This document shows positions 2,620 through 18,339 of a DNA stretch of 64,000 nt, piece by piece; position 1 is the first letter of the stretch, and the number at the start of each line of letters is the position of its first letter. The stretch is taken from NCBI RefSeq assembly GCF_054482595.1, contig NZ_CM137008.1; one strand, 5' to 3'. The notes below the pieces were generated by a model. That model was not told where the DNA came from. It did no database searches and saw nothing but the letters and a program-made list of their open reading frames with translations. The translations under genes and the position numbers were made by a program.

Positions 2620-3075
2620 TTAACGTTGTGTCACGCGAATAGCCATTTGCGACTGTCTCTGCACTACAATTGCCGTTTTTTGAGTACCATACTGTGTAAT
2701 ATTTGCTTTATTACCAGAACCTTTCTGGATAATCATCGCAGTATTACCATAAGCACCTTGCGAAATACTGGCATCGTTGGCACTGCCCGCCTGATCAATA
2801 TATGCAAGGTTATAATCTCCTGTCTGGTCAATCTTTGCCCGGTTGCTACTACCTTCTTGCGCAACAACCGCCAAAAGTTTTGAGCCTCCCTGCCGTAACT
2901 GAGCACTATTATTAGTCCCAGCTTGACCAATTATGGCTGCCTGATTAAATGAAGACTTACTCAATTCATTTACCGCGAAGTTATATTCTGAATTAGCTAA
3001 ATCATAACCTGCTGCGGCTGCAATCCCAGGCGCACCCAATATTGTTAACATCATAAATAACAATTTGTTTTTCAT
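2620..3075 (-). CDS. csgB: minor curlin nucleator CsgB (151 aa)
   Basis: Internal start MKNKLLFMMLTILGAPGIAAA...; curlin repeat architecture; directly upstream of csgA. Confidence 0.95.
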   Translation of the reverse strand: MKNKLLFMMLTILGAPGIAAAAGYDLANSEYNFAVNELSKSSFNQAAIIGQAGTNNSAQLRQGGSKLLAVVAQEGSSNRAKIDQTGDYNLAYIDQAGSANDASISQGAYGNTAMIIQKGSGNKANITQYGTQKTAIVVQRQSQMAIRVTQR

Positions 3076-3828
3076 GTTGTCACCCTGGACCTGGTCGTAC
3101 ATTTAAGAAATTAAATCATTTCAACTTGGTTGTTAACGCAACCTGTATTTTGTTAACGCTGCGTTACGATGGAAAGTATGTCTGCGGAAATATTTTTAAT
3201 AACTCACCCGCGCGTTGTATTTTTCTTTTTTTGTTCATACCAAAGTATTAAAAGCCACGTAAATACGCTGTTATCTACGCAAAAAATATTTTGTTTTCTT
3301 TTAAATCTCCGTTTTCCGCTAGCAAAAAACACCAGACAGTCATTCTTCTTGCCCGTCGCTGATTGCTGCGATATGTCTTGCGCACAAGCCGTGACAAACC
3401 TCGTCTTTTTGCAGTAAAAAATTGTCCACGGTGGTGTGGAGAAAAAACAAGAACGTTTTACATGACGAAAGGACTACACCGAAATATTTTTTATATGCAT
3501 TATTAGTAAGTTAGCACCATTTGTATGATTTTTTAAAATTGTGCAATAAAAACCAAATGTACAACTTTTCTATCATTCCTAAACTTAATAAAACCTTAAA
3601 GTTAACATTTCAATATAACGAGTTACATTTAGTTACATGTTTAACACTTGATTTAAGATTTGTAATGGCTAGATTGAAATCAGATGTAATCCATTAGTTT
3701 TATATTTTACCCATTTAGGGCTGATTTATTACTACACACAGCAGTGCAACATCTGTCAGTACTTCTGGTGCTTCTATTTTAGAGGCAGCTGTCAGGTGTG
3801 CGATCAATAAAAAAAGCGGGGTTTCATC
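3076..3828. promoter_or_regulatory. divergent csgBAC / csgDEFG intergenic regulatory region (promoters and long csgD 5' UTR)
   Basis: ~750 bp AT-rich ORF-poor spacer between divergent csgB and csgD. In E. coli this region is a known hub for OmpR, CpxR, IHF, H-NS, MlrA and sigma-S and for sRNA targeting of the csgD leader. Individual sites were not mapped here. Confidence 0.8.
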
Positions 3829-4479
<651 letters not shown>

Positions 4480-5340: not shown

Positions 5341-6174
5341 ATGCAGCGCTTATTTCTTTTGGTTGCCGTCATGTTACTGAGCGGATGCTTAACCGCCCCG
5401 CCTAAAGAAGCCGCCAGACCGACATTAATGCCTCGTGCTCAGAGCTACAAAGATTTGACCCATCTGCCAGCGCCGACGGGTAAGATCTTTGTTTCGGTAT
5501 ACAACATTCAGGACGAAACCGGGCAATTTAAACCCTACCCGGCAAGTAACTTCTCCACTGCTGTTCCGCAAAGCGCCACGGCGATGCTGGTCACGGCATT
5601 GAAAGATTCTCGCTGGTTTATACCGCTGGAGCGCCAGGGCTTACAAAACCTGCTTAACGAGCGCAAGATTATTCGTGCGGCACAAGAAAACGGCACGGTT
5701 GCCATTAATAACCGAATCCCGCTGCAATCTTTAACGGCGGCAAATATCATGGTTGAAGGTTCGATTATCGGTTATGAAAGCAACGTCAAATCGGGCGGGG
5801 TTGGGGCAAGATATTTTGGGATCGGTGCCGACACGCAATACCAGCTCGATCAGATTGCCGTGAACCTGCGCGTCGTCAATGTGAGTACCGGTGAGATCCT
5901 CTCCTCGGTGAACACCAGTAAGACGATACTTTCCTATGAAGTTCAGGCCGGGGTTTTCCGCTTTATTGACTACCAGCGCTTGCTGGAAGGGGAAGTGGGT
6001 TACACCTCAAACGAACCCGTTATGCTGTGTCTGATGTCGGCTATCGAAACAGGGGTCATTTTCCTGATTAATGATGGTATTGACCGTGGTCTGTGGGATT
6101 TGCAGAACAAAGCAGAACGGCAGAATGACATTCTGGTGAAATACCGCCATATGTCGGTTCCACCGGAATCCTGA
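5341..6174 (+). CDS. csgG: curli secretion channel lipoprotein CsgG (277 aa)
   Basis: ORF track; lipobox LLSGC near the N-terminus; operon position. Confidence 0.95.
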   Translation: MQRLFLLVAVMLLSGCLTAPPKEAARPTLMPRAQSYKDLTHLPAPTGKIFVSVYNIQDETGQFKPYPASNFSTAVPQSATAMLVTALKDSRWFIPLERQGLQNLLNERKIIRAAQENGTVAINNRIPLQSLTAANIMVEGSIIGYESNVKSGGVGARYFGIGADTQYQLDQIAVNLRVVNVSTGEILSSVNTSKTILSYEVQAGVFRFIDYQRLLEGEVGYTSNEPVMLCLMSAIETGVIFLINDGIDRGLWDLQNKAERQNDILVKYRHMSVPPES

Positions 6175-6224
6175 CAGATAAAAAAGCCGGAATTATCATC
6201 CGGCATTTTACTGCTTAAGCGAAA

Positions 6225-6252
6225 GCGTGAGTGCCCCTCACGCTTTATTTTT
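6225..6252 (+). terminator. putative rho-independent terminator after csgG
   Basis: Inverted repeat gcgtgag / ctcacgc (6225-6243) followed by tttattttt; a second hairpin gccgg...ccggc sits at 6186-6205. Confidence 0.5.
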
Positions 6253-6729
6253 GATTTCCTGCTCACGGTGCGCCGTCTTTGCACTACGCGCCGCCAGCCA
6301 CAGGCCGCTGTTTTTCATTGCGTAACCAAATATCAGCCCAAGCGCCAGCGAAGGTAACACCAGTTTCCAGTCACCCTGCCCGGCAAACGTCGCGCATGCG
6401 CCTATAAACGTCCCCGGAACAAATGAAAGCAGCAGCTGTTTGGCCTGAATACACATCAGAAACGCGACAATACCGGTTATGACATAACCGAGAATTTCCA
6501 AATGTGGCGTCAGTGCACTACCGTAAATAATGACCATCGCCCACACCACGCCACTAAGCAGGGTTGCAGCGGAGATCGCCAGCCCTTTCAGCCCACCTTG
6601 CGGGCAGGCAAAGTAGGCCGTACAGCCCAGGAAGCCCGCCCAGCTTAGTAAGCCCAGGGAAACAGCCACCCATCCCCAGATACCGGAGAGAATGCCTGTT
6701 GTGATTGCAATAGAGAGAAGTATGTTCAT
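6238..6729 (-). CDS. ycdZ: inner-membrane protein YcdZ (DUF1097-type, 163 aa)
   Basis: Internal start MNILLSIAITTGILSGIWGW...; multiple hydrophobic helices; synteny. Confidence 0.8.
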   Translation of the reverse strand: MNILLSIAITTGILSGIWGWVAVSLGLLSWAGFLGCTAYFACPQGGLKGLAISAATLLSGVVWAMVIIYGSALTPHLEILGYVITGIVAFLMCIQAKQLLLSFVPGTFIGACATFAGQGDWKLVLPSLALGLIFGYAMKNSGLWLAARSAKTAHREQEIKNKA

Positions 6730-6830
6730 GCCGCGCATGATAGCAGAAAACGCGTCCATGAATGAGATCGAGCACACATTTTATGCAACAACAAATTATC
6801 TGTTGCAGTTATGAGTGACGCAGATCACAT

Positions 6831-7385
6831 TTACTCTTCAGAATCCTCTTCCAGCTCGTCCCACATTGCACTAATGGCATCACGGGTTAGCGGTGCCATG
6901 GTGCGCCAGAAAGGCGTGGTTGCATGGGCCTCCACTTTGCCAAGGAACGCGCCACACCAGGGTAACAGATACTCACTGAACAGTGTTCCCAGTGCTTCGC
7001 TCTCATCTTCCGTTGACTGATCTTCCAGCCAGGAAGCCGCAAGCAGCAATGTGCCGATGTGATCGGCTGGCGTATCCGCCAGTGGCATCCCTCGTTCAGA
7101 AAGAAAAGCGCGCACTTCCGCTTCCGTTGCGTCCTCAACCCATGCGCTACGATATGGCGGCACGGCACATTCATCGCCGATAAACAACGCATTGTAATCG
7201 GCAGAGACTTGCGTCATATCACAGCTTTTCTGCAAACGTGTCAGCAACTCATCCTGCTCCAGTGGCCAGTTCGCAGCCAGTTTCCCCTCACGAATCAGGG
7301 TAAACAGCGGCACCAGTAAAGGATCTTGTGGTTGGCGGTAATAGAGCGAACCCAGCACACGACAGAGGATAGAAAACTCGTTCAT
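6831..7385 (-). CDS. ycdY: TorD-family chaperone YcdY (184 aa)
   Basis: ORF track; paired with ycdX as in K-12. Confidence 0.8.
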   Translation of the reverse strand: MNEFSILCRVLGSLYYRQPQDPLLVPLFTLIREGKLAANWPLEQDELLTRLQKSCDMTQVSADYNALFIGDECAVPPYRSAWVEDATEAEVRAFLSERGMPLADTPADHIGTLLLAASWLEDQSTEDESEALGTLFSEYLLPWCGAFLGKVEAHATTPFWRTMAPLTRDAISAMWDELEEDSEE

Positions 7386-9178: not shown

Positions 9179-9372
9179 TTATCGTTATGATCTACAAAGG
9201 CCACCAGCATAACAAATCCGTGGTCGGTGGCAAAAAAAGCAGATTTCGCTTATTAAAACTGCATATTGATTGAAGTTTGAATAAACGCGCGATTTTTTCA
9301 AAAAGTTTGTTGACCTCAGGTCATGATTTCCCTAAATTAGCGCCCGTTCCAGCAAGACAGGAACGACAATTT

Positions 9373-9460
9373 GGTGAGGTGTCCGAGTGGCTGAAGGAGC
9401 ACGCCTGGAAAGTGTGTATACGGCAACGTATCGGGGGTTCGAATCCCCCCCTCACCGCCA
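9373..9460 (+). tRNA. serX: tRNA-Ser (anticodon GGA), class II with long variable arm, 88 nt
   Basis: GGTGAGGTGTCCGAGTGGCTGAAGGAGCACGCCTGGAAAGTG...GGTTCGAATCC...CTCACCGCCA; 7-nt anticodon loop CUGGAAA; T-loop GGTTCGAATCC; encoded CCA. Confidence 0.92.
9447..9460 (+). repeat. attL core: 14-bp direct repeat (ccccctcaccgcca) forming the serX 3' end
   Basis: Identical 14-mer recurs at 51067..51080 in the same orientation, immediately before a terminator-like hairpin that would be the native serX downstream sequence. Confidence 0.65.
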
Positions 9461-9466
9461 GATTAT

Positions 9467-9499
9467 AAGCGCATGTTATTGTTTAACATGCGCTTTTTT
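9467..9499 (+). terminator. rho-independent terminator immediately after serX (island-encoded side)
   Basis: Hairpin agcgcatgtta / taacatgcgct followed by ttttttatt. Confidence 0.55.
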
Positions 9500-9609
9500 A
9501 TTTATCCTTCCGGACAGTATGCCATCGGGTATGCCATCTGAAACCGGTTTATATGCCCCGCGATCATATCTTATCGGACAATTTCCGATCTTTGAGCATA
9601 CTGGCAAAG

Positions 9610-10452
9610 CTATACTGCCAGCATGTCAGGATAGTGTTTTGCGATAATATCATTCAGTCTGTCAACCAGTTCTGGTTTCCTGAACGTGATGTGTGCGGAG
9701 CCCTTCTTAAAGTATCTGATGCTGAACATCTCATCTTCATAGTCCTCTTTACCCTGAACAGACTGGATGTGGTCATCCAGACGAAGGGTGATGTTTTCCC
9801 GGTTGTCGGGGATCGGTTTGCCGCTGAACAGGTGCAGCATTCTTTCCAGGTCGGCAAGTCGATCTACCTGGTGCCCGGTGATAAGATGAAATCCCCACCG
9901 GTCCCATCTCACCAGATTGTTGACGATAATTTTACTGCCAAATTTACAGGGGCAATTAGTTTTGTAATTCCAGCTCAATCCCCTGAAGACGTTGATCACC
10001 CCTCGCTCAAACACTTCATCTTTGTTCTGGTGCAGTTGTTCAAATGTGCTCAGAATGTTCGCTTCACTGACTTCCGGAAAATTATCATACTCCAGTGACC
10101 GGTACCATGTATCACGGGCCTGTGCATCCATTAAGGAAAGCATCCCTGAACGTTGCATCAGGTCACGCCAGATTTCTCGGTCAAGATTCCGGGTAATGGC
10201 TTTCATTGCTGTTTCGGGTTTCTCCATCAGCCAGCAACCGCAGCGAAAATCCTGTTTCATGGCCCAGTCCGGGGCGGTTTTACCTCCAATACTTTCTGTC
10301 ATTGATGAGATTTCAGCCAGTTGCCGGATAAGTGTGTCGATTTGCAGCAGTGTACTCTTTCGTACAGCCAGAATGTGGCTGACTGAGGTTGAGCAGATAA
10401 CGTCCGTATGCCCGTTGACCACTTCCGGATGGGAGAGTGTGATTGCAGACAT
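9610..10452 (-). CDS. conserved island protein, probably DUF4942 family (280 aa)
   Basis: ORF track; position downstream of the CbtA toxin module at the island end as in CP4-like elements. Family name recalled, not searched. Confidence 0.5.
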   Translation of the reverse strand: MSAITLSHPEVVNGHTDVICSTSVSHILAVRKSTLLQIDTLIRQLAEISSMTESIGGKTAPDWAMKQDFRCGCWLMEKPETAMKAITRNLDREIWRDLMQRSGMLSLMDAQARDTWYRSLEYDNFPEVSEANILSTFEQLHQNKDEVFERGVINVFRGLSWNYKTNCPCKFGSKIIVNNLVRWDRWGFHLITGHQVDRLADLERMLHLFSGKPIPDNRENITLRLDDHIQSVQGKEDYEDEMFSIRYFKKGSAHITFRKPELVDRLNDIIAKHYPDMLAV

Positions 10453-10536
10453 AATTGATATTCCTTTTGGTTTATAAACGAAAACGCCAGCCGTATTCAG
10501 GCTGGCGTCAGTGGAATGAAGTCTGGTGAGTAAGAC

Positions 10537-10734
10537 TCACCTGTTCTGTTGCAGAAGCTGCTGTTGGCGCAGGGTACGGATATCTTCCCTGGCCTGTTCA
10601 ATGCAGGGCAGCAGTGCTGCTGAATCCGTTTTATCCTCATCGTTGTCGAAGATAATCCCTGATTCGCAGTCAATATTGTCCTGCAGCCACGCAATCAGAA
10701 TATCCAGCGCCGTTTCTGTGGTTAATGATTTCAT
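10537..10734 (-). CDS. small conserved hypothetical protein (YeeW/YpjJ-like position, 65 aa)
   Basis: ORF track; acidic small protein co-oriented with neighbours. Confidence 0.35.
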   Translation of the reverse strand: MKSLTTETALDILIAWLQDNIDCESGIIFDNDEDKTDSAALLPCIEQAREDIRTLRQQQLLQQNR

Positions 10735-10750
10735 GTTGTGAATTTACGGG

Positions 10751-11239
10751 TTACCAGTCGAAAGTGGGGAACCCCGGCAGACATTCTGCGCCGGCGTCCA
10801 GATGAATGAGACTGACGCCATAACGCCGGGTGAGAGTGACGACCAGACGACGGAACGTTCTTGACAGGCCCAGGCGTTTAAGCCGCAGAACCGGGTACGA
10901 CCATGCATCGGTACGTAACAGATAGCCGCTGCCTGTAAAATGAATCCATTCTGTTTCGCCGTCGTCATTAGTCTGGTGTGACAGCGAGTACAGCCAGGCG
11001 TTGTCCGTTTCCGTGATATGTGCGGTACTGCAACGTATGCCGGTAAGGGTTGTTAACGGTGGTGGTGTACTGGTTGACTGCTGGTCGGATTTATCGACCA
11101 CGCGGAGTGAATAACCGTTTTCAGAGACCTTGTTAATCAGTTCAGCGAGATTAACACCATCGACGTCAACGACAATGCGCCCCATGTTCAGCGCCTGCAT
11201 GTTAATGCTGTCGGCTTCCGGCGTCAGGGAAAGGTTCAT
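10751..11239 (-). CDS. hypothetical protein downstream of cbtA (possibly DUF5983-like, 162 aa)
   Basis: ORF track; start overlaps the cbtA stop by 4 nt, suggesting co-transcription. Confidence 0.4.
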
Positions 11240-11619
11240 TGTTTCGCCTCCTCCGGATGCTTGCCCAGGGTAATGTTATTTACCATTCTGTAATTGTCCC
11301 GGGTCATCAGGCCGGTCGCCCTGCGAGCCCGGAGAATATCAATGCTGTTGATTAACTGAGACGACGGGGCTCCTGCGCTGAATCCCGGCTGGTCAGTTCG
11401 TACCAGCACGTATTTTTCAACGAGAAAGTTCACCGCGTCACACAGTGAAATCCCTGCCTCAATATGCTGCTCAATCACACGTTCATCAGCGAACGGTGTG
11501 TCATTCAACGTAAGGCCATAGTGCTGGTCCAGCAGTCGGGTGAGCAGTGTCTGCCAGATTTCAACCGGAGACGGGCAGCGCGATGCCGCCCGTACGTGTG
11601 TGTCGGGTAATGTTTTCAT
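11236..11619 (-). CDS. cbtA: type IV toxin, CbtA/YeeV/YkfI family (cytoskeleton-targeting)
   Basis: Internal start MKTLPDTHV... followed by [54 protein letters not shown], close to recalled YeeV. Confidence 0.8.
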
Positions 11620-11695: not shown

Positions 11696-12076
11696 CTATT
11701 CCGGAGGGTTACTTTCCGTTTCGGTCGCAGGATAAACAGCCAGATAAACGTAACCACAGGAGCCGAGGGTGTCGGCATCGCAGGTCAGCCCTTTCGCATA
11801 CAGCGTGACGGTATGCTGATGCCGGGGATTCAGTTCACCGCTGGTGAGCATGAGTTCCAGTTGTTTCATCAGCAGTGGAAAAGCCTGGTCCAGATGGTAT
11901 GCATCCGCATTGCTGAACCGGCCTCTGATACCGGCGCGGTCTGCAAGGTAATGCAACCGGTTACCCTCCTGCACCAGACGTGCCCCGAAACAGGGCGTCA
12001 CGATGCAGGGCAGCCCCCACCAGGGGCGGTCTTTGTTGTCGTCGGGAAGCGTTGTCCCGGGGAGTGTGTCTGACAC
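11696..12076 (-). CDS. cbeA: type IV antitoxin, CbeA/YeeU family
   Basis: GTG start at 12076 preceded by gagga; product [54 protein letters not shown]..., close to recalled YeeU; 76 bp upstream of cbtA. Confidence 0.8.
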
Positions 12077-12086
12077 GATAAAATCC

Positions 12087-12770
12087 TCACAGAAAATCGG
12101 TGAATGATAGTTTAACGATGACGGGGCAGCCGGCGCGCAGACCGGCTTCGGTGAAGGTATATTCGTTGATGAGAAGGGCCTCATCCACAGCGGCGTCTGA
12201 GGTCAGCCAGTCGTACTCGTTTTCCAGTTGACGGTACAACCAGAAGGCCAGGTCGCGCAGGGCTTCGCTGACTGCGGCTTCCGCATCGGTTGTCATAGCC
12301 TGACCAGTCGGACTGTTCCGGGTGACGGTGATATCCATGCAGTACGGATGGCAGTAACGTCCCCGGTGGTGGATTTCAGCCTGCAGTTGCCAGAAGTTAC
12401 GCTTCTGCACCGCCTGCAGGGCATCCGCGATACGATGAAGCTCACGGTCCTGCGGGGCATACACCCCGACTCTCCTGGCTGTTGCTGACTGCCAGTGCCA
12501 GCGTCCTTCAAAACAGGCTCCGTCCCCCTGGCTGCAGAATCCGCTGAACCAGATGCACGGCTCTTCCATAAACCTGCCGTTGCTGAGCCGGATAACACGC
12601 TGGCGGAGGTCAATCCCGAAAATGCCACAGACCTCCCTGAAGTCCCCATACACGTTTTCATACCAGTTGCTGTCAGCATGATGCTGACGGTACCAGTCGC
12701 GGGCTTTTTCCTGTGCGGTGGAGGATAGCTCATTCAGTGTATACACAGTGGTGGTGATAATTCTGCTCAT
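12087..12770 (-). CDS. hypothetical protein (227 aa) inserted between yeeT-like and cbeA; family not recognised
   Basis: ORF track; tightly packed between 12789 and 12076; Trp/Cys-rich (CIWFSGFCSQGDGACFEGRWHW, HHRGRYCHPYC). Confidence 0.5.
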   Translation of the reverse strand: MSRIITTTVYTLNELSSTAQEKARDWYRQHHADSNWYENVYGDFREVCGIFGIDLRQRVIRLSNGRFMEEPCIWFSGFCSQGDGACFEGRWHWQSATARRVGVYAPQDRELHRIADALQAVQKRNFWQLQAEIHHRGRYCHPYCMDITVTRNSPTGQAMTTDAEAAVSEALRDLAFWLYRQLENEYDWLTSDAAVDEALLINEYTFTEAGLRAGCPVIVKLSFTDFL

Positions 12771-12788
12771 CAGAGTGCCCTTACTGAC

Positions 12789-13010
12789 TCAGTTCAGAGT
12801 GACGTTCATCAGCCGGACATACGGGCCAAAACTGTCCTTACGGCGTTCAGCAAACACGGCCAGCACACCGGGAATATCCTGCACTTCACGACCGGTATAC
12901 GCCTCAGCACTGCCGTGCCAGCGGTATTTGCCGGTACAGAAAGGAAAAAGACGGGATGCCGGATGTTGTTGGTGAATACGCATGGCTTCACCACGGGTGA
13001 TGATTTTCAT
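12789..13010 (-). CDS. yeeT: YeeT/YkfH-family protein (DUF987, 73 aa)
   Basis: MKIITRGEAMRIHQQHPASRLFPFCTGKYRWHGSAEAYTGREVQDIPGVLAVFAERRKDSFGPYVRLMNVTLN, near-identical to recalled K-12 YeeT. Confidence 0.75.
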   Translation of the reverse strand: MKIITRGEAMRIHQQHPASRLFPFCTGKYRWHGSAEAYTGREVQDIPGVLAVFAERRKDSFGPYVRLMNVTLN

Positions 13011-13072: not shown

Positions 13073-13549
13073 TTAAAGCAGACCATGTTCGGCAAAGGAG
13101 AAAACCTGGTTGCCACCGACTATCAGATGGTCCGGCACCCGGATATCCACCAGGCCCAGTGCCTGTACCAGACGTTCCGTGATAAGGCGGTCTGCCTTGC
13201 TGGGTGTGACTTCACCGGACGGGTGATTGTGCGCCAGCACCACGGCAGCGGCATTGTGGTACAGGGCGCGTTTAATCACTTCCCGGGGATGGACTTCCGT
13301 GCGGTTGATGGTGCCGGTGAAGAGGGTTTCACCGGCAATCAGTTGATTCTGGTTATTCAGATACAGCACCCGGAATTCTTCACGCTCCAGTCCCGCCATG
13401 TTCAGAATCAGCCATTCCCGTGCCGCACGGGTGGAGGTGAAGGCCACGCCGGGTTCATGAAGATGGCGGTCCAGAGTTTTCAGGGCCCGCAGAATGAGAC
13501 TGCGCTCGCCGGGCGTCATCTCTCCGGGCAGAAAGGAAAGCTGCTGCAT
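13073..13549 (-). CDS. yeeS: RadC-like JAB-domain protein (YeeS/YkfG family)
   Basis: Internal start MQQLSFLPGEMTPGERSLILRAL...; JAB metalloprotease motif HNHPSGEVTPSKAD. Confidence 0.8.
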   Translation of the reverse strand: MQQLSFLPGEMTPGERSLILRALKTLDRHLHEPGVAFTSTRAAREWLILNMAGLEREEFRVLYLNNQNQLIAGETLFTGTINRTEVHPREVIKRALYHNAAAVVLAHNHPSGEVTPSKADRLITERLVQALGLVDIRVPDHLIVGGNQVFSFAEHGLL

Positions 13550-13564
13550 TGTCCCTGCCTCCAT

Positions 13565-14050
13565 TCAGTCGATGATGCGCATAATGGCGCTGCATTCCGG
13601 ATGCTGCAGGGCGTAATCCCGCAGCCGGTAATAATGGACCGTCATGGCATAACACTCCGTACGACAGGCGTGATGACTGTACGTCATCAGACAGGCAGCA
13701 ATGCCGGCAGCTTCCGGACTCATTTCAGCGCGGTTACCGTTCATGGCATTGAACAGTACCCATGTTTCGTCATCATCGTCATCCGGTTCGGGTGCCATAA
13801 ATGCCCCGCCGTTGTTCAGGGTGTACAGATTCCAGATACCACCGCAGTAGTCTTCACACAGACGGTCCATCCAGCCGAAGACACGGGGCTCCAGGGCCAC
13901 CCACTGTGGAATGAGGCCAAAGTGCTGCGGCCAGAAGCTGATGCGCTGTTCATCAGGGACTATGGTGGCAACCAGCTGAGGCTGGTCATTCCCTGATGCA
14001 GCGGTTACGGAAACAGAAGGAGTGGTGGAATTATGCAAGACGGTTGTCAT
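13565..14050 (-). CDS. antirestriction protein, KlcA/ArdB-like (YafX/YfjX family)
   Basis: ORF track 161 aa; acidic stretch PEPDDDDDETW; conserved position upstream of radC-like gene in CP4-type islands. Confidence 0.6.
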   Translation of the reverse strand: MTTVLHNSTTPSVSVTAASGNDQPQLVATIVPDEQRISFWPQHFGLIPQWVALEPRVFGWMDRLCEDYCGGIWNLYTLNNGGAFMAPEPDDDDDETWVLFNAMNGNRAEMSPEAAGIAACLMTYSHHACRTECYAMTVHYYRLRDYALQHPECSAIMRIID

Positions 14051-14141: not shown

Positions 14142-14960
14142 TCAGCGCATACTCTCCAGCAGCGTTTCAGCCATCACCCACAATGCGCGGTTGAGCTTAA
14201 TGTCGGTGTCGATGCTGTGAATGGCACGGGTATGGATACGTTTTCCTCTGGCACTGCGACCGGAAATCCCGCCTTTCAGCATATTCTCCTGAATGGTCTG
14301 ATAAGCACTCCACAGGTCCTTACCGTAATCCTCCCGGCGTCGTGGCGTCAGAATGTCGGCGGTGGTGACGGGCCGATGTTCGTCACCATAACGGTAAGTC
14401 AGTGCCGCCTGTGCCAGCGCCTGGCGTGCCGGTGGCGGCAGAATCAGCGACTGCATGGCATCACGCTTTTCCTCAATCCGGTCAAAAACCCCCACCACCT
14501 CGTAAGCCCCTTCAATAACTTTCTCCACCACATTTCCCCGGTGCGGAACACGCACTTCCCCCAGAGACTGACCACAGACGCATCCGTTCTGACAGACGAA
14601 CCTGAAGTAACCCGGCAGCATCTGGTAGCTGGAGGTACCGTCATGGGAGTTGAGCAGAATGATTTCAGGGACATGTTCTCCGTTTATCTCTCCGGCCCGC
14701 CGCAGACGCAGCATATGTTTTGTGTATCCCCGGCGGCCCGGGTCGCGCACACGGGTCTGGCAGGCGAAGAATGGCTGAAAGCCTTCCCGCTGCAGGCTTT
14801 CCAGTACGGTGATGGTGGGAATGTACGCATATCGTTTACTGCGGGAAGTATGCCGGTCTTCACCGAAAATACTGGGAACATAGTGCATCAGTTCTTCGTG
14901 TGTCAGCGGACGGTCACGGCGTATCTGGTTCGTATAACCAAAACGACTGGCTAGTCGCAT
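14142..14960 (-). CDS. DUF932-domain protein (YafZ/YfjQ family, 272 aa)
   Basis: MRLASRFGYTNQIRRDRPLTHEELMHYVPSIFGEDRHTSRSKRYAYIPTITVLESLQREGFQPFF..., matches recalled YfjQ/YafZ. Confidence 0.7.
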   Translation of the reverse strand: MRLASRFGYTNQIRRDRPLTHEELMHYVPSIFGEDRHTSRSKRYAYIPTITVLESLQREGFQPFFACQTRVRDPGRRGYTKHMLRLRRAGEINGEHVPEIILLNSHDGTSSYQMLPGYFRFVCQNGCVCGQSLGEVRVPHRGNVVEKVIEGAYEVVGVFDRIEEKRDAMQSLILPPPARQALAQAALTYRYGDEHRPVTTADILTPRRREDYGKDLWSAYQTIQENMLKGGISGRSARGKRIHTRAIHSIDTDIKLNRALWVMAETLLESMR

Positions 14961-15236
14961 AATTTGCTCCTTATGAATGAGTTAGCGGTATAAATGAAAA
15001 AGCCGCGTCTCCCGGAGAAGACACGGCCTGACAGATGAAATGAATGACGTTTATTGTCTGAGAAGCCCTTCACTGGCGAGCTGCGTATTTTTATGGAAGG
15101 AGATCACCCAATAACCCCATCGGGATCGGGTAATAACCGGCCAGACTGTGATCGATTCAGATGCCATTTGGCAGCAAAAGAGCCTTCGGCAATAAACGTG
15201 ATGTACAACCCGGCATATCTGTTACTCCCTGAAAGT

Positions 15237-15286: not shown

Positions 15287-18133
15287 TCAGAAAGTCACAT
15301 TCAGCGTGGCCTGACCGTTATAGCCTTCGGCGCTGCTGCCGCTGACGCTGTGGGCATAACCGGCCTGAACGCCCAGGGTGATATTTTCCCGGACACGGGC
15401 TTCCAGTCCGGCCTGCAGGTCCAGTGACGTGCCATTCTGGGACGGTGAGAACGTCATGTTACTGCCGGCGGCGGCTGTCCCCATGCTCATGTCACCCCGG
15501 GAACTGAAGGTGCGGATAACAGAAGGCTGTACCCACCAGTTCACCGGCAGTTCACGCACACGGTGTTTTGCACTGTCGCGCAGGGTGTCACGGGATGAGG
15601 TGCCTTCACCAAAGCTCATATCGTTGTGGCTGCCCAGACGGAAGCCGGCACGCATATGTTGTGCACTGCCATGCCCGAACTTCACATAACCGGCGTTATC
15701 CTGGCCGTCATCCAGGGAAAGTCCCTGCCAGGTGTACTGCAGTTGTGGTTCCAGCATCAGGTTGTCAGTGATACTGAAGGGCAGACCGGTTTCCAGTGAG
15801 CCCAGCCAGCCCCAGCCCCGGGCGCGGAAGTCGTTATTGTCCGATGACGCTTTCATGCTGTGGCGGGTTCCCTGTGCCATAATGTCAGCCCACAGGCCGG
15901 AGGACGTGTGTACCAGATTCAGGTATCCGCCCAGGCTGCCGGCATCATCCCGGACCGTGCCGGCGCGGGAGCCGTCATCATCCTTAACATCAACGGAAGA
16001 ATGGCCAGCAGCACTATATACCCCCGCGGTCACAGACATACCGGCAACCTCTGTTCTCAGCAGGTCACTCTCCAGACGGACGAAGCCATAGCTGCCGCTG
16101 CTTTCCGGCGTGGCCCCACGGGCAATACCGCCGTTGTTATCGTGACCGAGATGACCGCCCTGAATGCTGAGACGGACGCTGTTATTTTCACCGTTTACAC
16201 CGGTCTGATGGCTGCGGGAGCCTGCCAGAATCCGGTCATAGTCCATTGCCTGTGTCAGCATGGAAGCATACAGGGGGACTTCAGCACGATAAGCATTTTC
16301 ACTGCGCAGGTACCAGTCTTCATCGCTGTCACGGTTCAGGGTGTAGTTAAAGGCACCGGCCTGAAGCGGGCGACTCAGGGCAAACGCACCTTCTTCTGTG
16401 GTGGCACCATTCTGTGCATCCACAACCCGGATACCCTGTCCGGAAGTTGCCACCCCGAGGTTACTGTTTCCGACATTTGTGAACGCAAGCCAGGTTTTGC
16501 CGGTTGCCTGACCACCATTAATCACCAGCTGGTCAGAGGCATTGCTGCCATCAAGGCGAACACGCATATTGATGGTGCCACCCTGACCGGTGAGGTTACT
16601 GGTGGTCAGTTTATGGAACGTTACCGGGGCGTCGCCTTTTGCAACAGCACGGCTCAGGACGGCATCCTGTGTCGTCTGATTATCAAAGCGAATCTCCCCT
16701 GCGTTAACAATATCGCCGGTACTGACCACATCACCATTCAGTACCATGCTGGCGCCTTTACTGAGCTGTGTTCTGCCACTCAGACTTCCCCCGGCAGCCA
16801 GCGTCAGTGTTCCACGATGTCCGACAGTGGTGTTGCCAGCCTGTCCCCCGGCATTAACCGTAAAGCTGCCGCCATTTTCCAGCAGCAGGCCGCTGGCCTG
16901 ACCGGATATGCCATCAATACTGAACTTACCGCTGGCATTGGTCCCCTCAACAGTGGCACCACTGTCTGCAATCAGGGCACCACCGGATGTCATGGTGACA
17001 CCTGTCGCCTTACCACCGGCAGACACTGCCAGGGTACCGCCGTCATCCACCCGTGTTTTCTGCGCTGAATGACCCTCCAGTACATCCAGACGACCGCCGG
17101 ACTCCAGAACAACACCGTCAGCCTTACCGTTTTCCACCGCGAAATTGCCCAGACGGTTGCTGCCGGTGACGGTTGCCGCCGTACTGGTGACCAGTGCGCC
17201 TCCCTGCTTCAGGGTGACATTCGTGGCTGTACCACCGGCGTTCACCTGCAGTTTGCCTTTCTGGTTAACGGTGGTGAAATCCGCCAGACCACCTTCCTTG
17301 ATAATCTGCCAGCCGTCACTGTTCACAACAGTGTCAGACGTTGTACCGCCGTTGTGTACATACTGGTTACCGCCATTCAGCGTGGTATCCAGTGCGTGGC
17401 CATGTACCGTCTGGTCGCCGCCGGCATAAACCACAGTGGTATTTGCTGTTCCTTCAACAGTCACAATCTGACGACCATTTTTATTGATGGTGGTACGTAC
17501 GGCATTTCCGCGAACAAACTGCCCGGTATCACCATTTTCTGCATCCGGTCCTCCTTCTGCGCCGGTATTCACAACGGTGTCTGTTGCCACTGCGCCGGGT
17601 TTGACGACCTGCCAGCCCTTATCATTAATGACGGTTCCTGTGGCTATCGCACCTTCATGCATCCACTGCTCGCCACCATTCAGCGTGGTGTTCAGTGCCA
17701 GTCCCTTCAGGCTTTGTCCGCCTCCTTCATTGATTATTGTGTCTGTAGCCTTTCCCCCGGCACCTACAAACTGGAGCCCGCCGCTGCTGATGGTGGTATT
17801 ACTGGCTGTGCCGCCATCCTGTACCCATTGCCCGCCGGTATTGGCCTCGTTATCCGTCCCATACTCCAGCCCGGTACTGATGGTCATTCCGTTGGTCGTA
17901 CCGAAGACAATCTGGTTGTCATGATTTGTCAGTGTTCCGCCGTTCACGGTTTCTCCCGCCTCTACAACCGTGTCAGCAGCCAGTGCCGGGACTGGCGTGA
18001 CAGCAGCAAGAGACAGCGCAACCGCCACACCGGCGCGTTTTCCCCGTGAGCGGGCCAGTTCGGAAGCCACCACCAGGGTGCCCGTAATGTGATTCCATAC
18101 CAGCCTGTAGCTGGTGTTCAGATGTCGTTTCAT
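15287..18133 (-). CDS. flu: antigen 43 (Ag43) self-associating autotransporter adhesin
   Basis: Start MKRHLNTSYRLVWNHITGTLVVASELARSRGKRAGVAVALSLAAVTPVPALAADTVVEAGETVNGGTL (ATG 18133 with aagga RBS); repetitive beta-helix passenger; C-terminal beta-barrel ending ...QATLNVTF. Confidence 0.9.
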   Translation of the reverse strand: MKRHLNTSYRLVWNHITGTLVVASELARSRGKRAGVAVALSLAAVTPVPALAADTVVEAGETVNGGTLTNHDNQIVFGTTNGMTISTGLEYGTDNEANTGGQWVQDGGTASNTTISSGGLQFVGAGGKATDTIINEGGGQSLKGLALNTTLNGGEQWMHEGAIATGTVINDKGWQVVKPGAVATDTVVNTGAEGGPDAENGDTGQFVRGNAVRTTINKNGRQIVTVEGTANTTVVYAGGDQTVHGHALDTTLNGGNQYVHNGGTTSDTVVNSDGWQIIKEGGLADFTTVNQKGKLQVNAGGTATNVTLKQGGALVTSTAATVTGSNRLGNFAVENGKADGVVLESGGRLDVLEGHSAQKTRVDDGGTLAVSAGGKATGVTMTSGGALIADSGATVEGTNASGKFSIDGISGQASGLLLENGGSFTVNAGGQAGNTTVGHRGTLTLAAGGSLSGRTQLSKGASMVLNGDVVSTGDIVNAGEIRFDNQTTQDAVLSRAVAKGDAPVTFHKLTTSNLTGQGGTINMRVRLDGSNASDQLVINGGQATGKTWLAFTNVGNSNLGVATSGQGIRVVDAQNGATTEEGAFALSRPLQAGAFNYTLNRDSDEDWYLRSENAYRAEVPLYASMLTQAMDYDRILAGSRSHQTGVNGENNSVRLSIQGGHLGHDNNGGIARGATPESSGSYGFVRLESDLLRTEVAGMSVTAGVYSAAGHSSVDVKDDDGSRAGTVRDDAGSLGGYLNLVHTSSGLWADIMAQGTRHSMKASSDNNDFRARGWGWLGSLETGLPFSITDNLMLEPQLQYTWQGLSLDDGQDNAGYVKFGHGSAQHMRAGFRLGSHNDMSFGEGTSSRDTLRDSAKHRVRELPVNWWVQPSVIRTFSSRGDMSMGTAAAGSNMTFSPSQNGTSLDLQAGLEARVRENITLGVQAGYAHSVSGSSAEGYNGQATLNVTF

Positions 18134-18339
18134 CAGCTTTTCCTTACAGAGGGTGAATAAAAAAGCCGGTACCCACAAATGTGGATACCGGCAGGTACAA
18201 AACAGCATGGTCAGATAAAGTGGTTTTTCCCGGACATAAATGCTTCCCCTCTCTCATCCGCCAGAGAAGTATCAGTCCGTTGTGTGCAATTCCGTTCTGC
18301 ATGATGAAGAGATTCAGCTGCCTTTTCGCAGACCATTAA

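Follow-up and report, generated by a model that had tools for sequence, protein, structure and literature searches.

The gene considered here is a 684-bp open reading frame (ORF) of 227 codons plus a TGA stop, located at 12087-12770 on the minus strand of a 64,000-nt window, that is, the whole stretch of DNA analysed, which comes from contig NZ_CM137008.1 of the RefSeq assembly GCF_054482595.1. It lies between a yeeT-type gene and the type IV antitoxin gene cbeA, shares its orientation with the whole cassette and is present in the window as a single copy. Its sequence is already catalogued and common, and its biology is uncharacterised, as neither a family model, nor a solved fold relative, nor a paper on it was found. 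The gene is genuine and evolves under constraint, its presence in the cassette is not due to an insertion, and its family occupies terminal repeats or end-proximal runs of early-type genes in three or more phage groups. From the functional point of view, the reading favoured here, although held at somewhat less than even confidence, is that it encodes an early-expressed establishment or host-takeover factor, of the anti-defence type, that acts on a conserved host component. This reading is preferred because of the independence of the family from CbtA/CbeA, its ArdC, ParB_N, RadC and SNF2-methylase neighbours in plasmids and integrative and conjugative elements (ICEs), its location at phage ends and its repeated loss from resident islands.

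Location in phages and transferable elements

Phage records with a homologue number 64, at 26-36% identity. In the giant Caulobacter phages (CcrBL9, CcrSC, CcrPW and others) the family gene sits inside the annotated 22-kb direct terminal repeat, so that each genome carries two copies, and in Klebsiella phage fENko-Kae01 it is ENKO_004, inside a direct terminal repeat of 19.7 kb. The Bacillus phages Hobo and BM15, from the Herelleviridae, present it twice, near the left end (gene 9, at a distance of 3.4 kb), and in Pseudomonas phage Lana and a phage-like metagenomic contig it is found within long series of small hypothetical genes that share one orientation. All the phage loci examined place it amid genes of this kind, without CbeA/CbtA. 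In SPO1, which belongs to the Herelleviridae, the early host-takeover genes are found in the terminal region (PMC6873191). In the Caulobacter, Klebsiella and Bacillus phages, the family occupies terminal repeats or runs of small co-oriented genes close to the ends, and is placed like this SPO1 module, which includes the DNA mimic Gp44, although no homology of the family to the characterised members of the module was shown. The label 'RNA polymerase binding protein', given to the homologue from Acinetobacter phage vB_AbaM_CP14 (OP585105.1), was rejected as a positional mis-annotation. This homologue is next to 60-aa calls of 'DNA polymerase', 'sliding clamp' and 'clamp loader', names that are unreliable and seem to reflect a transfer by position.

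To define the genomic context outside E. coli, a single peptide pattern was run against one genome per species; it returned 578 relatives, of which the best 80 loci were used. These are nearly all alphaproteobacterial, with around 60% identity. The neighbours, found by probe and all on the strand of the family gene, are the following:

138-aa protein without a Pfam family: 72/80 loci, upstream, overlapping
SNF2/methyltransferase: 63/80 loci, ~180 bp downstream
ParB_N: 57/80 loci, upstream
Toprim: 53/80 loci, downstream
YAcAr: 45/80 loci, downstream
ArdC: 39/80 loci, upstream
RadC: 39/80 loci, ~490 bp upstream
DUF2958: 30/80 loci, upstream
CbeA/CbtA: 1/80 loci, a single Salmonella locus

An ORF check of the same loci found 68 with an upstream ORF of at least 60 aa, the 3' end of which overlaps the start codon of the family gene in 67 of the 68. 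The protein of ~138 aa is probably a translationally coupled partner of the family protein. By BLASTP and hhalign (probability 0.15%), it shows no mutual homology with DUF987/YeeT or DUF6878, nor do these two with each other. A Thioclava plasmid has the order DUF932, RadC, DUF6878, family gene and a DUF6088/AbiEii toxin-antitoxin pair. This is the order of E. coli with a different pair, which suggests that CbeA/CbtA is a swappable module in a broader operon. Among plasmid records, 113 have a match to the family; they are mainly alphaproteobacterial, and 41 of them are typed as conjugative. In Tistrella, ~2 kb separate the family gene from nikA/relaxase; the gene is on the non-relaxase side and its transcription runs towards nikA/relaxase. 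A location among the genes that enter the cell first is therefore found in the phages, through their terminal repeats or left ends, and is suggested for plasmids by one locus, that of Tistrella. Plasmid leading regions are known to contain anti-defence islands in which anti-restriction genes, methyltransferases, single-stranded DNA-binding proteins and toxin-antitoxin pairs are mixed (PMC11541004).

The genomic niche of the gene is also the one of the Ard proteins (ArdA, ArdB/KlcA, corresponding to PF03230, and ArdC), with a PF03230 gene in the window and ArdC in the alphaproteobacterial elements. The product is likewise acidic and of the same order of size, but it has no sequence or fold similarity to any characterised member. 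Regarding the DNA mimics Ocr, ArdA and SPO1 Gp44, which are defined by a strongly acidic surface with the geometry of DNA phosphates, the family was considered at the level of composition, where its median net charge of -15.5 is concentrated in the terminal helices.

The same neighbourhood may be explained in a different way, if the product is an enzyme or a structural factor for the DNA transactions of the element itself (processing, replication priming, modification or partition) that works together with ParB_N, SNF2/methyltransferase, Toprim and RadC, and not against host defence. The near-fixed place of the gene in the alphaproteobacterial elements, between ParB_N/RadC and SNF2/methyltransferase plus Toprim, speaks for such a role, as do its translational coupling to the 138-aa partner and a very strong constraint in which Q81, D83, E88, H112, Q122, Y139 and H141 are compatible with a catalytic or metal site. 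However, Pfam and fold searches detected neither a fold nor a motif of a known catalytic kind, the copies of the phages and of E. coli are without those neighbours, and the acidity of the protein argues against direct DNA binding. The gene is also dispensable in resident E. coli islands, although such islands no longer need transfer functions. Taken together, a role in DNA transactions is considered unlikely, without being negligible.

Repeated loss from E. coli islands

The sequence-only reading had described the gene as wedged into a conserved cassette, with CP4-type elements in which the antitoxin gene follows yeeT after a short spacer as the reference. This is correct for K-12, the three CP4 cassettes of which all lack the gene and have yeeT-cbeA spacers of 73, 37 and 18 bp, but the direction of the change is the opposite. 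In K-12 MG1655, the 73-bp spacer of CP4-44 contains the ATG of the gene with seven codons, directly joined to the few codons at its end. The relic consists of 16 codons in frame, MSRIIATTGPFLADFL followed by the stop, and keeps the original start together with the stop of the read-through frame (extracted locus ~2554-2604). Because the start and end codons of the gene remain, this spacer can be identified as the scar of a deletion. In strain S30 the deletion is another one, of 550 bp, from the yeeT stop to nucleotide 532 of the gene. The gene is accordingly an ancestral part of the cassette that has undergone repeated loss, by at least two independent deletions in E. coli islands that left cbeA/cbtA intact. 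The short spacers of K-12 represent the derived state, and the yeeT-cbeA spacers of its CP4 elements have to be re-read as deletion scars and not as the ancestral arrangement. Loss of the gene with retention of cbeA/cbtA fits a function for transfer rather than one for the toxin-antitoxin pair.

The extent of this loss was estimated across 5426 complete E. coli genomes, with the following counts:

Whole gene, at least 80% covered: 1941 genomes
Whole gene, any match including a 3' remnant: 6439 places in 3505 genomes
Gene body (gene nucleotides 30-530): 2830 places in 1964 genomes
yeeT: 12844 places in 4796 genomes

The gene is kept in ~22% of the yeeT-type cassettes (2830 gene-body places against 12844 yeeT places) and in ~36% of the complete E. 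coli genomes, and many of the others hold a remnant. It is consequently not a standard member of most CP4-like elements, the alternative that the sequence-only reading had set against its own proposal.

Family, fold and proposed role of the product

The window protein gave no match beyond noise against Pfam, NCBIfam or PADLOC, in line with the earlier impression that it belongs to no recognisable family. Its only family match is PHROG 5162 (E 9.5e-37, residues 2-211 against profile positions 2-196 of 201), a phage family without functional annotation; the profile match is direct, and membership says nothing on the mechanism. A Pfam scan of 60 members of the family alignment (E<=1) found no family and no antitoxin model, sequence searches of the PDB with the single sequence and with the profile returned nothing at E<=10, and no paper that deals with the gene came up in the literature under its NCBI name, under yeeT/yeeS/DUF987 or under lfgA/lfgB. 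The description of the gene as unrecognised is correct with respect to its function, but not with respect to the databases, as the identical 227-aa protein is found on at least 1000 contigs and has an NCBI product name.

This product name is of the RelB/Phd/StbD antitoxin kind and has spread through RefSeq and UniRef. It is a generic designation that relB also receives elsewhere, and as a name for this gene it appears to be wrong, being unsupported by any Pfam or NCBIfam model. Were the name taken at its word, the product would be a type II antitoxin, which is highly improbable: sequence, size, fold and partner toxin all differ, and nothing is shared with the RelB, Phd and StbD antitoxins apart from the name. 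With 214 aa in its standard form and a mixed alpha/beta fold, the protein is unlike the small ribbon-helix-helix or YefM-fold antitoxins; no RelE/ParE-type toxin adjoins the gene in the window, and its alphaproteobacterial neighbours are the 138-aa protein and the SNF2/methyltransferase. The supplement of the leading-region paper includes a family with this label, but the co-label 'DNA-binding transcriptional repressor' given there points to the RelB type.

Regarding the size of the family, a word-index search gave 2726 homologues, and an exhaustive search over clusters at 50% identity gave 3591 representatives at E<=1e-3, of which 395 reach E<=1e-30, nearly all being single-domain proteins of ~210 aa. 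The ratio of non-synonymous to synonymous substitution rates (dN/dS) is 0.15-0.30 between the window allele and seven orthologues from E. coli, Citrobacter, Klebsiella, Salmonella, Methylosinus and Tistrella, each of 214 codons and aligned without gaps, and this 214-codon core is free of indels from E. coli to the Alphaproteobacteria. That the ORF is decaying or spurious and has no function, as its repeated deletion in E. coli and the stop-loss tail of the window allele could suggest, can practically be discarded in view of this dN/dS, of a length kept across bacterial classes, of the number of clusters and of the confidence of the structural model described below. The 227-aa form results from a single-base stop loss. 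Compared with the standard allele of strain EC7, the window allele differs in one base, TGA to TGC at codon 215, which adds 13 codons up to the next in-frame stop. The gene is accordingly divided as follows, all on the minus strand:

12129-12770 (-): conserved 214-codon core (alignment, model and dN/dS)
12126-12128 (-): codon 215, TGC (Cys), which is a TGA stop in the standard 214-aa alleles (comparison with strain EC7)
12090-12125 (-): read-through tail, codons 216-227, non-conserved, with a predicted local distance difference test score (pLDDT) of 60-70 (model and allele comparison)

Conservation and charge were profiled on the 60-sequence family alignment. The conserved core motif is FSGFxSQGDGAxFEG (residues 75-89), a second motif, ANEYxFTEDG, lies near the C-terminus, and further conserved polar residues are E14, D43, D108, H112, Q122, Y139, H141 and R172. 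The family is acidic, with a median isoelectric point of 4.75 and a median net charge of -15.5, most of which is located in residues 1-52 and 161-214; the acidic C-terminal helical region is within the 214-codon core. The richness in Trp, Cys and His noted from the sequence was confirmed for the window protein (W 3.5%, C 3.1%, H 3.1%). Nevertheless, the Cys richness is local to this allele and not a family trait, because the conservation of Cys stays below 75% in every column of the family alignment. A zinc site of conserved Cys residues was ruled out on the same grounds, and so was a PD-(D/E)xK nuclease built from D83 and E88, as there is neither a conserved Lys nor a nuclease fold match. Two singletons that may be assembly artefacts were also seen: a 283-aa family protein with a tandem duplication of its N-terminal ~70 residues, and a 285-aa chimera with the Antirestriction family that is consistent with a deletion of RadC and YeeT.

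The product is a soluble, acidic, single-domain protein of ~214 aa. Its AlphaFold2 model, obtained with the 60-sequence alignment, has a mean pLDDT of 94 and a predicted template modelling score (pTM) of 0.86, with low pLDDT in residues 215-227, the read-through tail. The modelled chain starts with two N-terminal helices, followed by three beta-hairpins with the QGDG loop, two helices, the hairpin of H141 and a long acidic helical pair. A Foldseek search of the model against the full PDB found no fold neighbour (best E 0.12), and the matches in BFVD are limited to phage proteins of comparable length that are themselves uncharacterised, from phages of Escherichia, Salmonella, Bacillus and Lactobacillus. 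By the PDB searches run, the predicted fold is without a solved counterpart.

According to the proposed mechanism, the gene would be transcribed within the DUF932, antirestriction, RadC and YeeT operon and would be among the earliest genes expressed by a mobile element on entering a new cell. The target of the protein would then be a conserved component of the host, whether a protein of defence or DNA processing, or a substrate such as a nucleic acid or nucleotide. The protein would act on it by means of its acidic N- and C-terminal helices or of the polar set formed by Q81, D83, E88, H112, Q122, Y139 and H141, and the incoming element would be helped to establish. The adjoining CbeA/CbtA would form an addiction module of its own within this operon, exchangeable for another pair. 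Early expression, target and anti-defence or host-takeover activity are all presumed from context, and several points weigh against them. The enterobacterial copies always lie within the CbeA/CbtA operon, in some lineages between the antitoxin and the toxin. A leading-region position with respect to oriT is deduced for Tistrella only, the Tistrella relaxase probe matched no relaxase homologue in the 80 loci, and early expression in phages is deduced from the position in the genome. The family shows no homology to any characterised anti-defence protein, and its conservation is unusually high for a protein of that type (~60% identity between E. coli and the Alphaproteobacteria, without indels), which fits an enzyme or an element-housekeeping role at least as well.

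A broader version of the establishment factor, which is doubtful but not implausible, is that of a pan-bacterial family without a solved counterpart of its predicted fold, delivered first by phages, in their terminal repeats, and by conjugative elements, that neutralises or modifies a universally conserved host component; it would be a new class of establishment or anti-defence effector, captured into the CbeA/CbtA operon in enterobacteria. A universal host target would explain both the unusual constraint and the presence of the family in Gram-negative and Bacillus phages. In enterobacterial islands, the captured effector may modulate the CbeA/CbtA pair. The strong conservation suggests that the host target is itself conserved, and the family is carried by a third of the complete E. 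coli genomes, by hundreds of further species and by several groups of phages. With its placement in anti-restriction-type and first-entering regions, the family offers a concrete and cheap target for anti-defence and host-takeover screens.

The cassette of the window and its link to CbeA/CbtA

In the window, the gene is part of a co-oriented block bracketed by two terminator-like hairpins, with the following features:

15000-15029 (-): terminator-like hairpin upstream of the block, a 13-pair stem followed by a T run (hairpin scan)
14142-14960 (-): DUF932 protein, with which the co-oriented block begins (Pfam)
13565-14050 (-): antirestriction protein, PF03230 (Pfam)
13073-13564 (-): RadC-like JAB protein (Pfam)
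12789-13010 (-): yeeT-type gene, DUF987, 73 aa, directly upstream of the gene (Pfam)
12778-12782 (-): Shine-Dalgarno-like AAGGG, 7 nt 5' of the ATG of the gene, inside the 18-nt spacer that separates it from yeeT (sequence inspection)
11708-12076 (-): cbeA, type IV antitoxin, PF06154 (5e-54), GTG start (Pfam)
11236-11619 (-): cbtA, type IV toxin, PF06755 (Pfam)
10751-11239 (-): yeeW-type gene, DUF5983 (Pfam)
10537-10734 (-): 65-aa ORF between DUF5983 and DUF4942
Last of the minus-strand order, after the 65-aa ORF (-): DUF4942 gene (Pfam)
10483-10509 (-): terminator-like hairpin downstream of the block (hairpin scan)

The gene fills the gap between yeeT and cbeA exactly, as had been stated, but the distances given as 19 and 11 bp are 18 and 10 nt. 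The first separates the yeeT stop (12789-12791) from the ATG of the gene (12768-12770) and covers 12771-12788, and the second separates the stop of the gene (12087-12089) from the GTG of cbeA (12074-12076) and covers 12077-12086. The GAGGA ribosome-binding site of cbeA overlaps the stop codon of the gene. Between yeeT, the gene and cbeA, there is no hairpin as strong as the two that bracket the block. Regarding the surroundings, RefSeq has a DUF957 at the place equivalent to that of the 65-aa ORF in related islands, although the ORF itself has no Pfam match at E<=0.01. A tRNA-Ser(GGA) gene, at 9373-9460 (+), adjoins the DUF4942 end of the island. Upstream of the cassette, a 973-aa protein encoded at 15287-18208 (-) has the look of an autotransporter adhesin, and related islands carry Ag43 there.

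This tight arrangement raises the possibility that, in enterobacterial islands, the product works as a third partner in the type IV module formed by CbtA and CbeA, either as an accessory antitoxin that binds the toxin or as an adaptor or regulator. Apart from the operon-like proximity to the start of cbeA, the order of the genes in other genera bears on this explanation. The gene was found in further CbtA/CbeA loci of Citrobacter, Klebsiella and Salmonella; most E. coli yeeT-type cassettes lack it. The order RadC, DUF987, gene, CbeA, CbtA is the one of the window, of Citrobacter and of a 64%-identical E. coli lineage. In Klebsiella michiganensis, the order is RadC, DUF987, CbeA, gene, CbtA, with spacers of 13 and 33 nt (extracted loci 5610-6996). 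Salmonella diarizonae has a core of CbeA, gene and CbtA in which the gene overlaps the cbeA stop through an ATGA (extracted locus 9260-11086), and no RadC or DUF987 Pfam match is found upstream in this locus. The Salmonella diarizonae locus also contains two tandem CbeA-type genes, a divergent one of 133 aa and another of 123 aa. The association is kept across alleles that are only 58-64% identical.

A natural in-frame fusion of the family protein to CbeA, of 342-343 aa, is carried by several diverged lineages of E. coli. Its origin is a TGA to TTA change together with a spacer deletion of 34 nt (E. coli CP138416.1, extracted locus 3001-4032). As the ribosome-binding site and the GTG of cbeA are retained, free CbeA can still be made from the fusion allele. 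The AlphaFold model of the fusion shows a confident family domain, residues 222-272 with pLDDT below 50, a pTM of 0.68 and no confident interface, the CbeA part of the alignment being shallow. With CbeA/YeeU (PF06154), the family protein shares the operon, an adjoining gene position that in some genera lies between cbeA and cbtA, and this natural fusion. However, the sequences are unrelated, without a match of the product to PF06154, and the family protein is around twice the size of CbeA and mostly found without CbtA/CbeA.

Co-occurrence does not support an obligate third component, since 79 of the 80 loci and all the phage loci examined carry the family without CbeA/CbtA, and ~78% of the E. 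coli yeeT-type cassettes, including all three of K-12, have the pair without the gene body. Clean deletions, moreover, remove the gene and spare cbeA/cbtA. The CbeA/CbtA pairs of K-12 function without the gene. A third component is therefore improbable. Of the two roles that the sequence-only reading had envisaged, an additional toxin-antitoxin component or an anti-defence one, the latter is the one best supported by the context. The toxin-antitoxin role is weakened by the loci without the pair, but it is kept alive by the position of the gene between cbeA and cbtA in Klebsiella and Salmonella and by the fusion allele.

Finally, one observation concerns the RadC-like proteins of these cassettes. 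In CP4-57 of K-12, the record names the antirestriction-like and RadC-like genes lfgA and lfgB, respectively (extracted locus 1920-2869). LfgB has been reported as a protease that cleaves the antitoxin MqsA (PMC10846083), which hints that RadC-type proteins of these cassettes may act on antitoxins.

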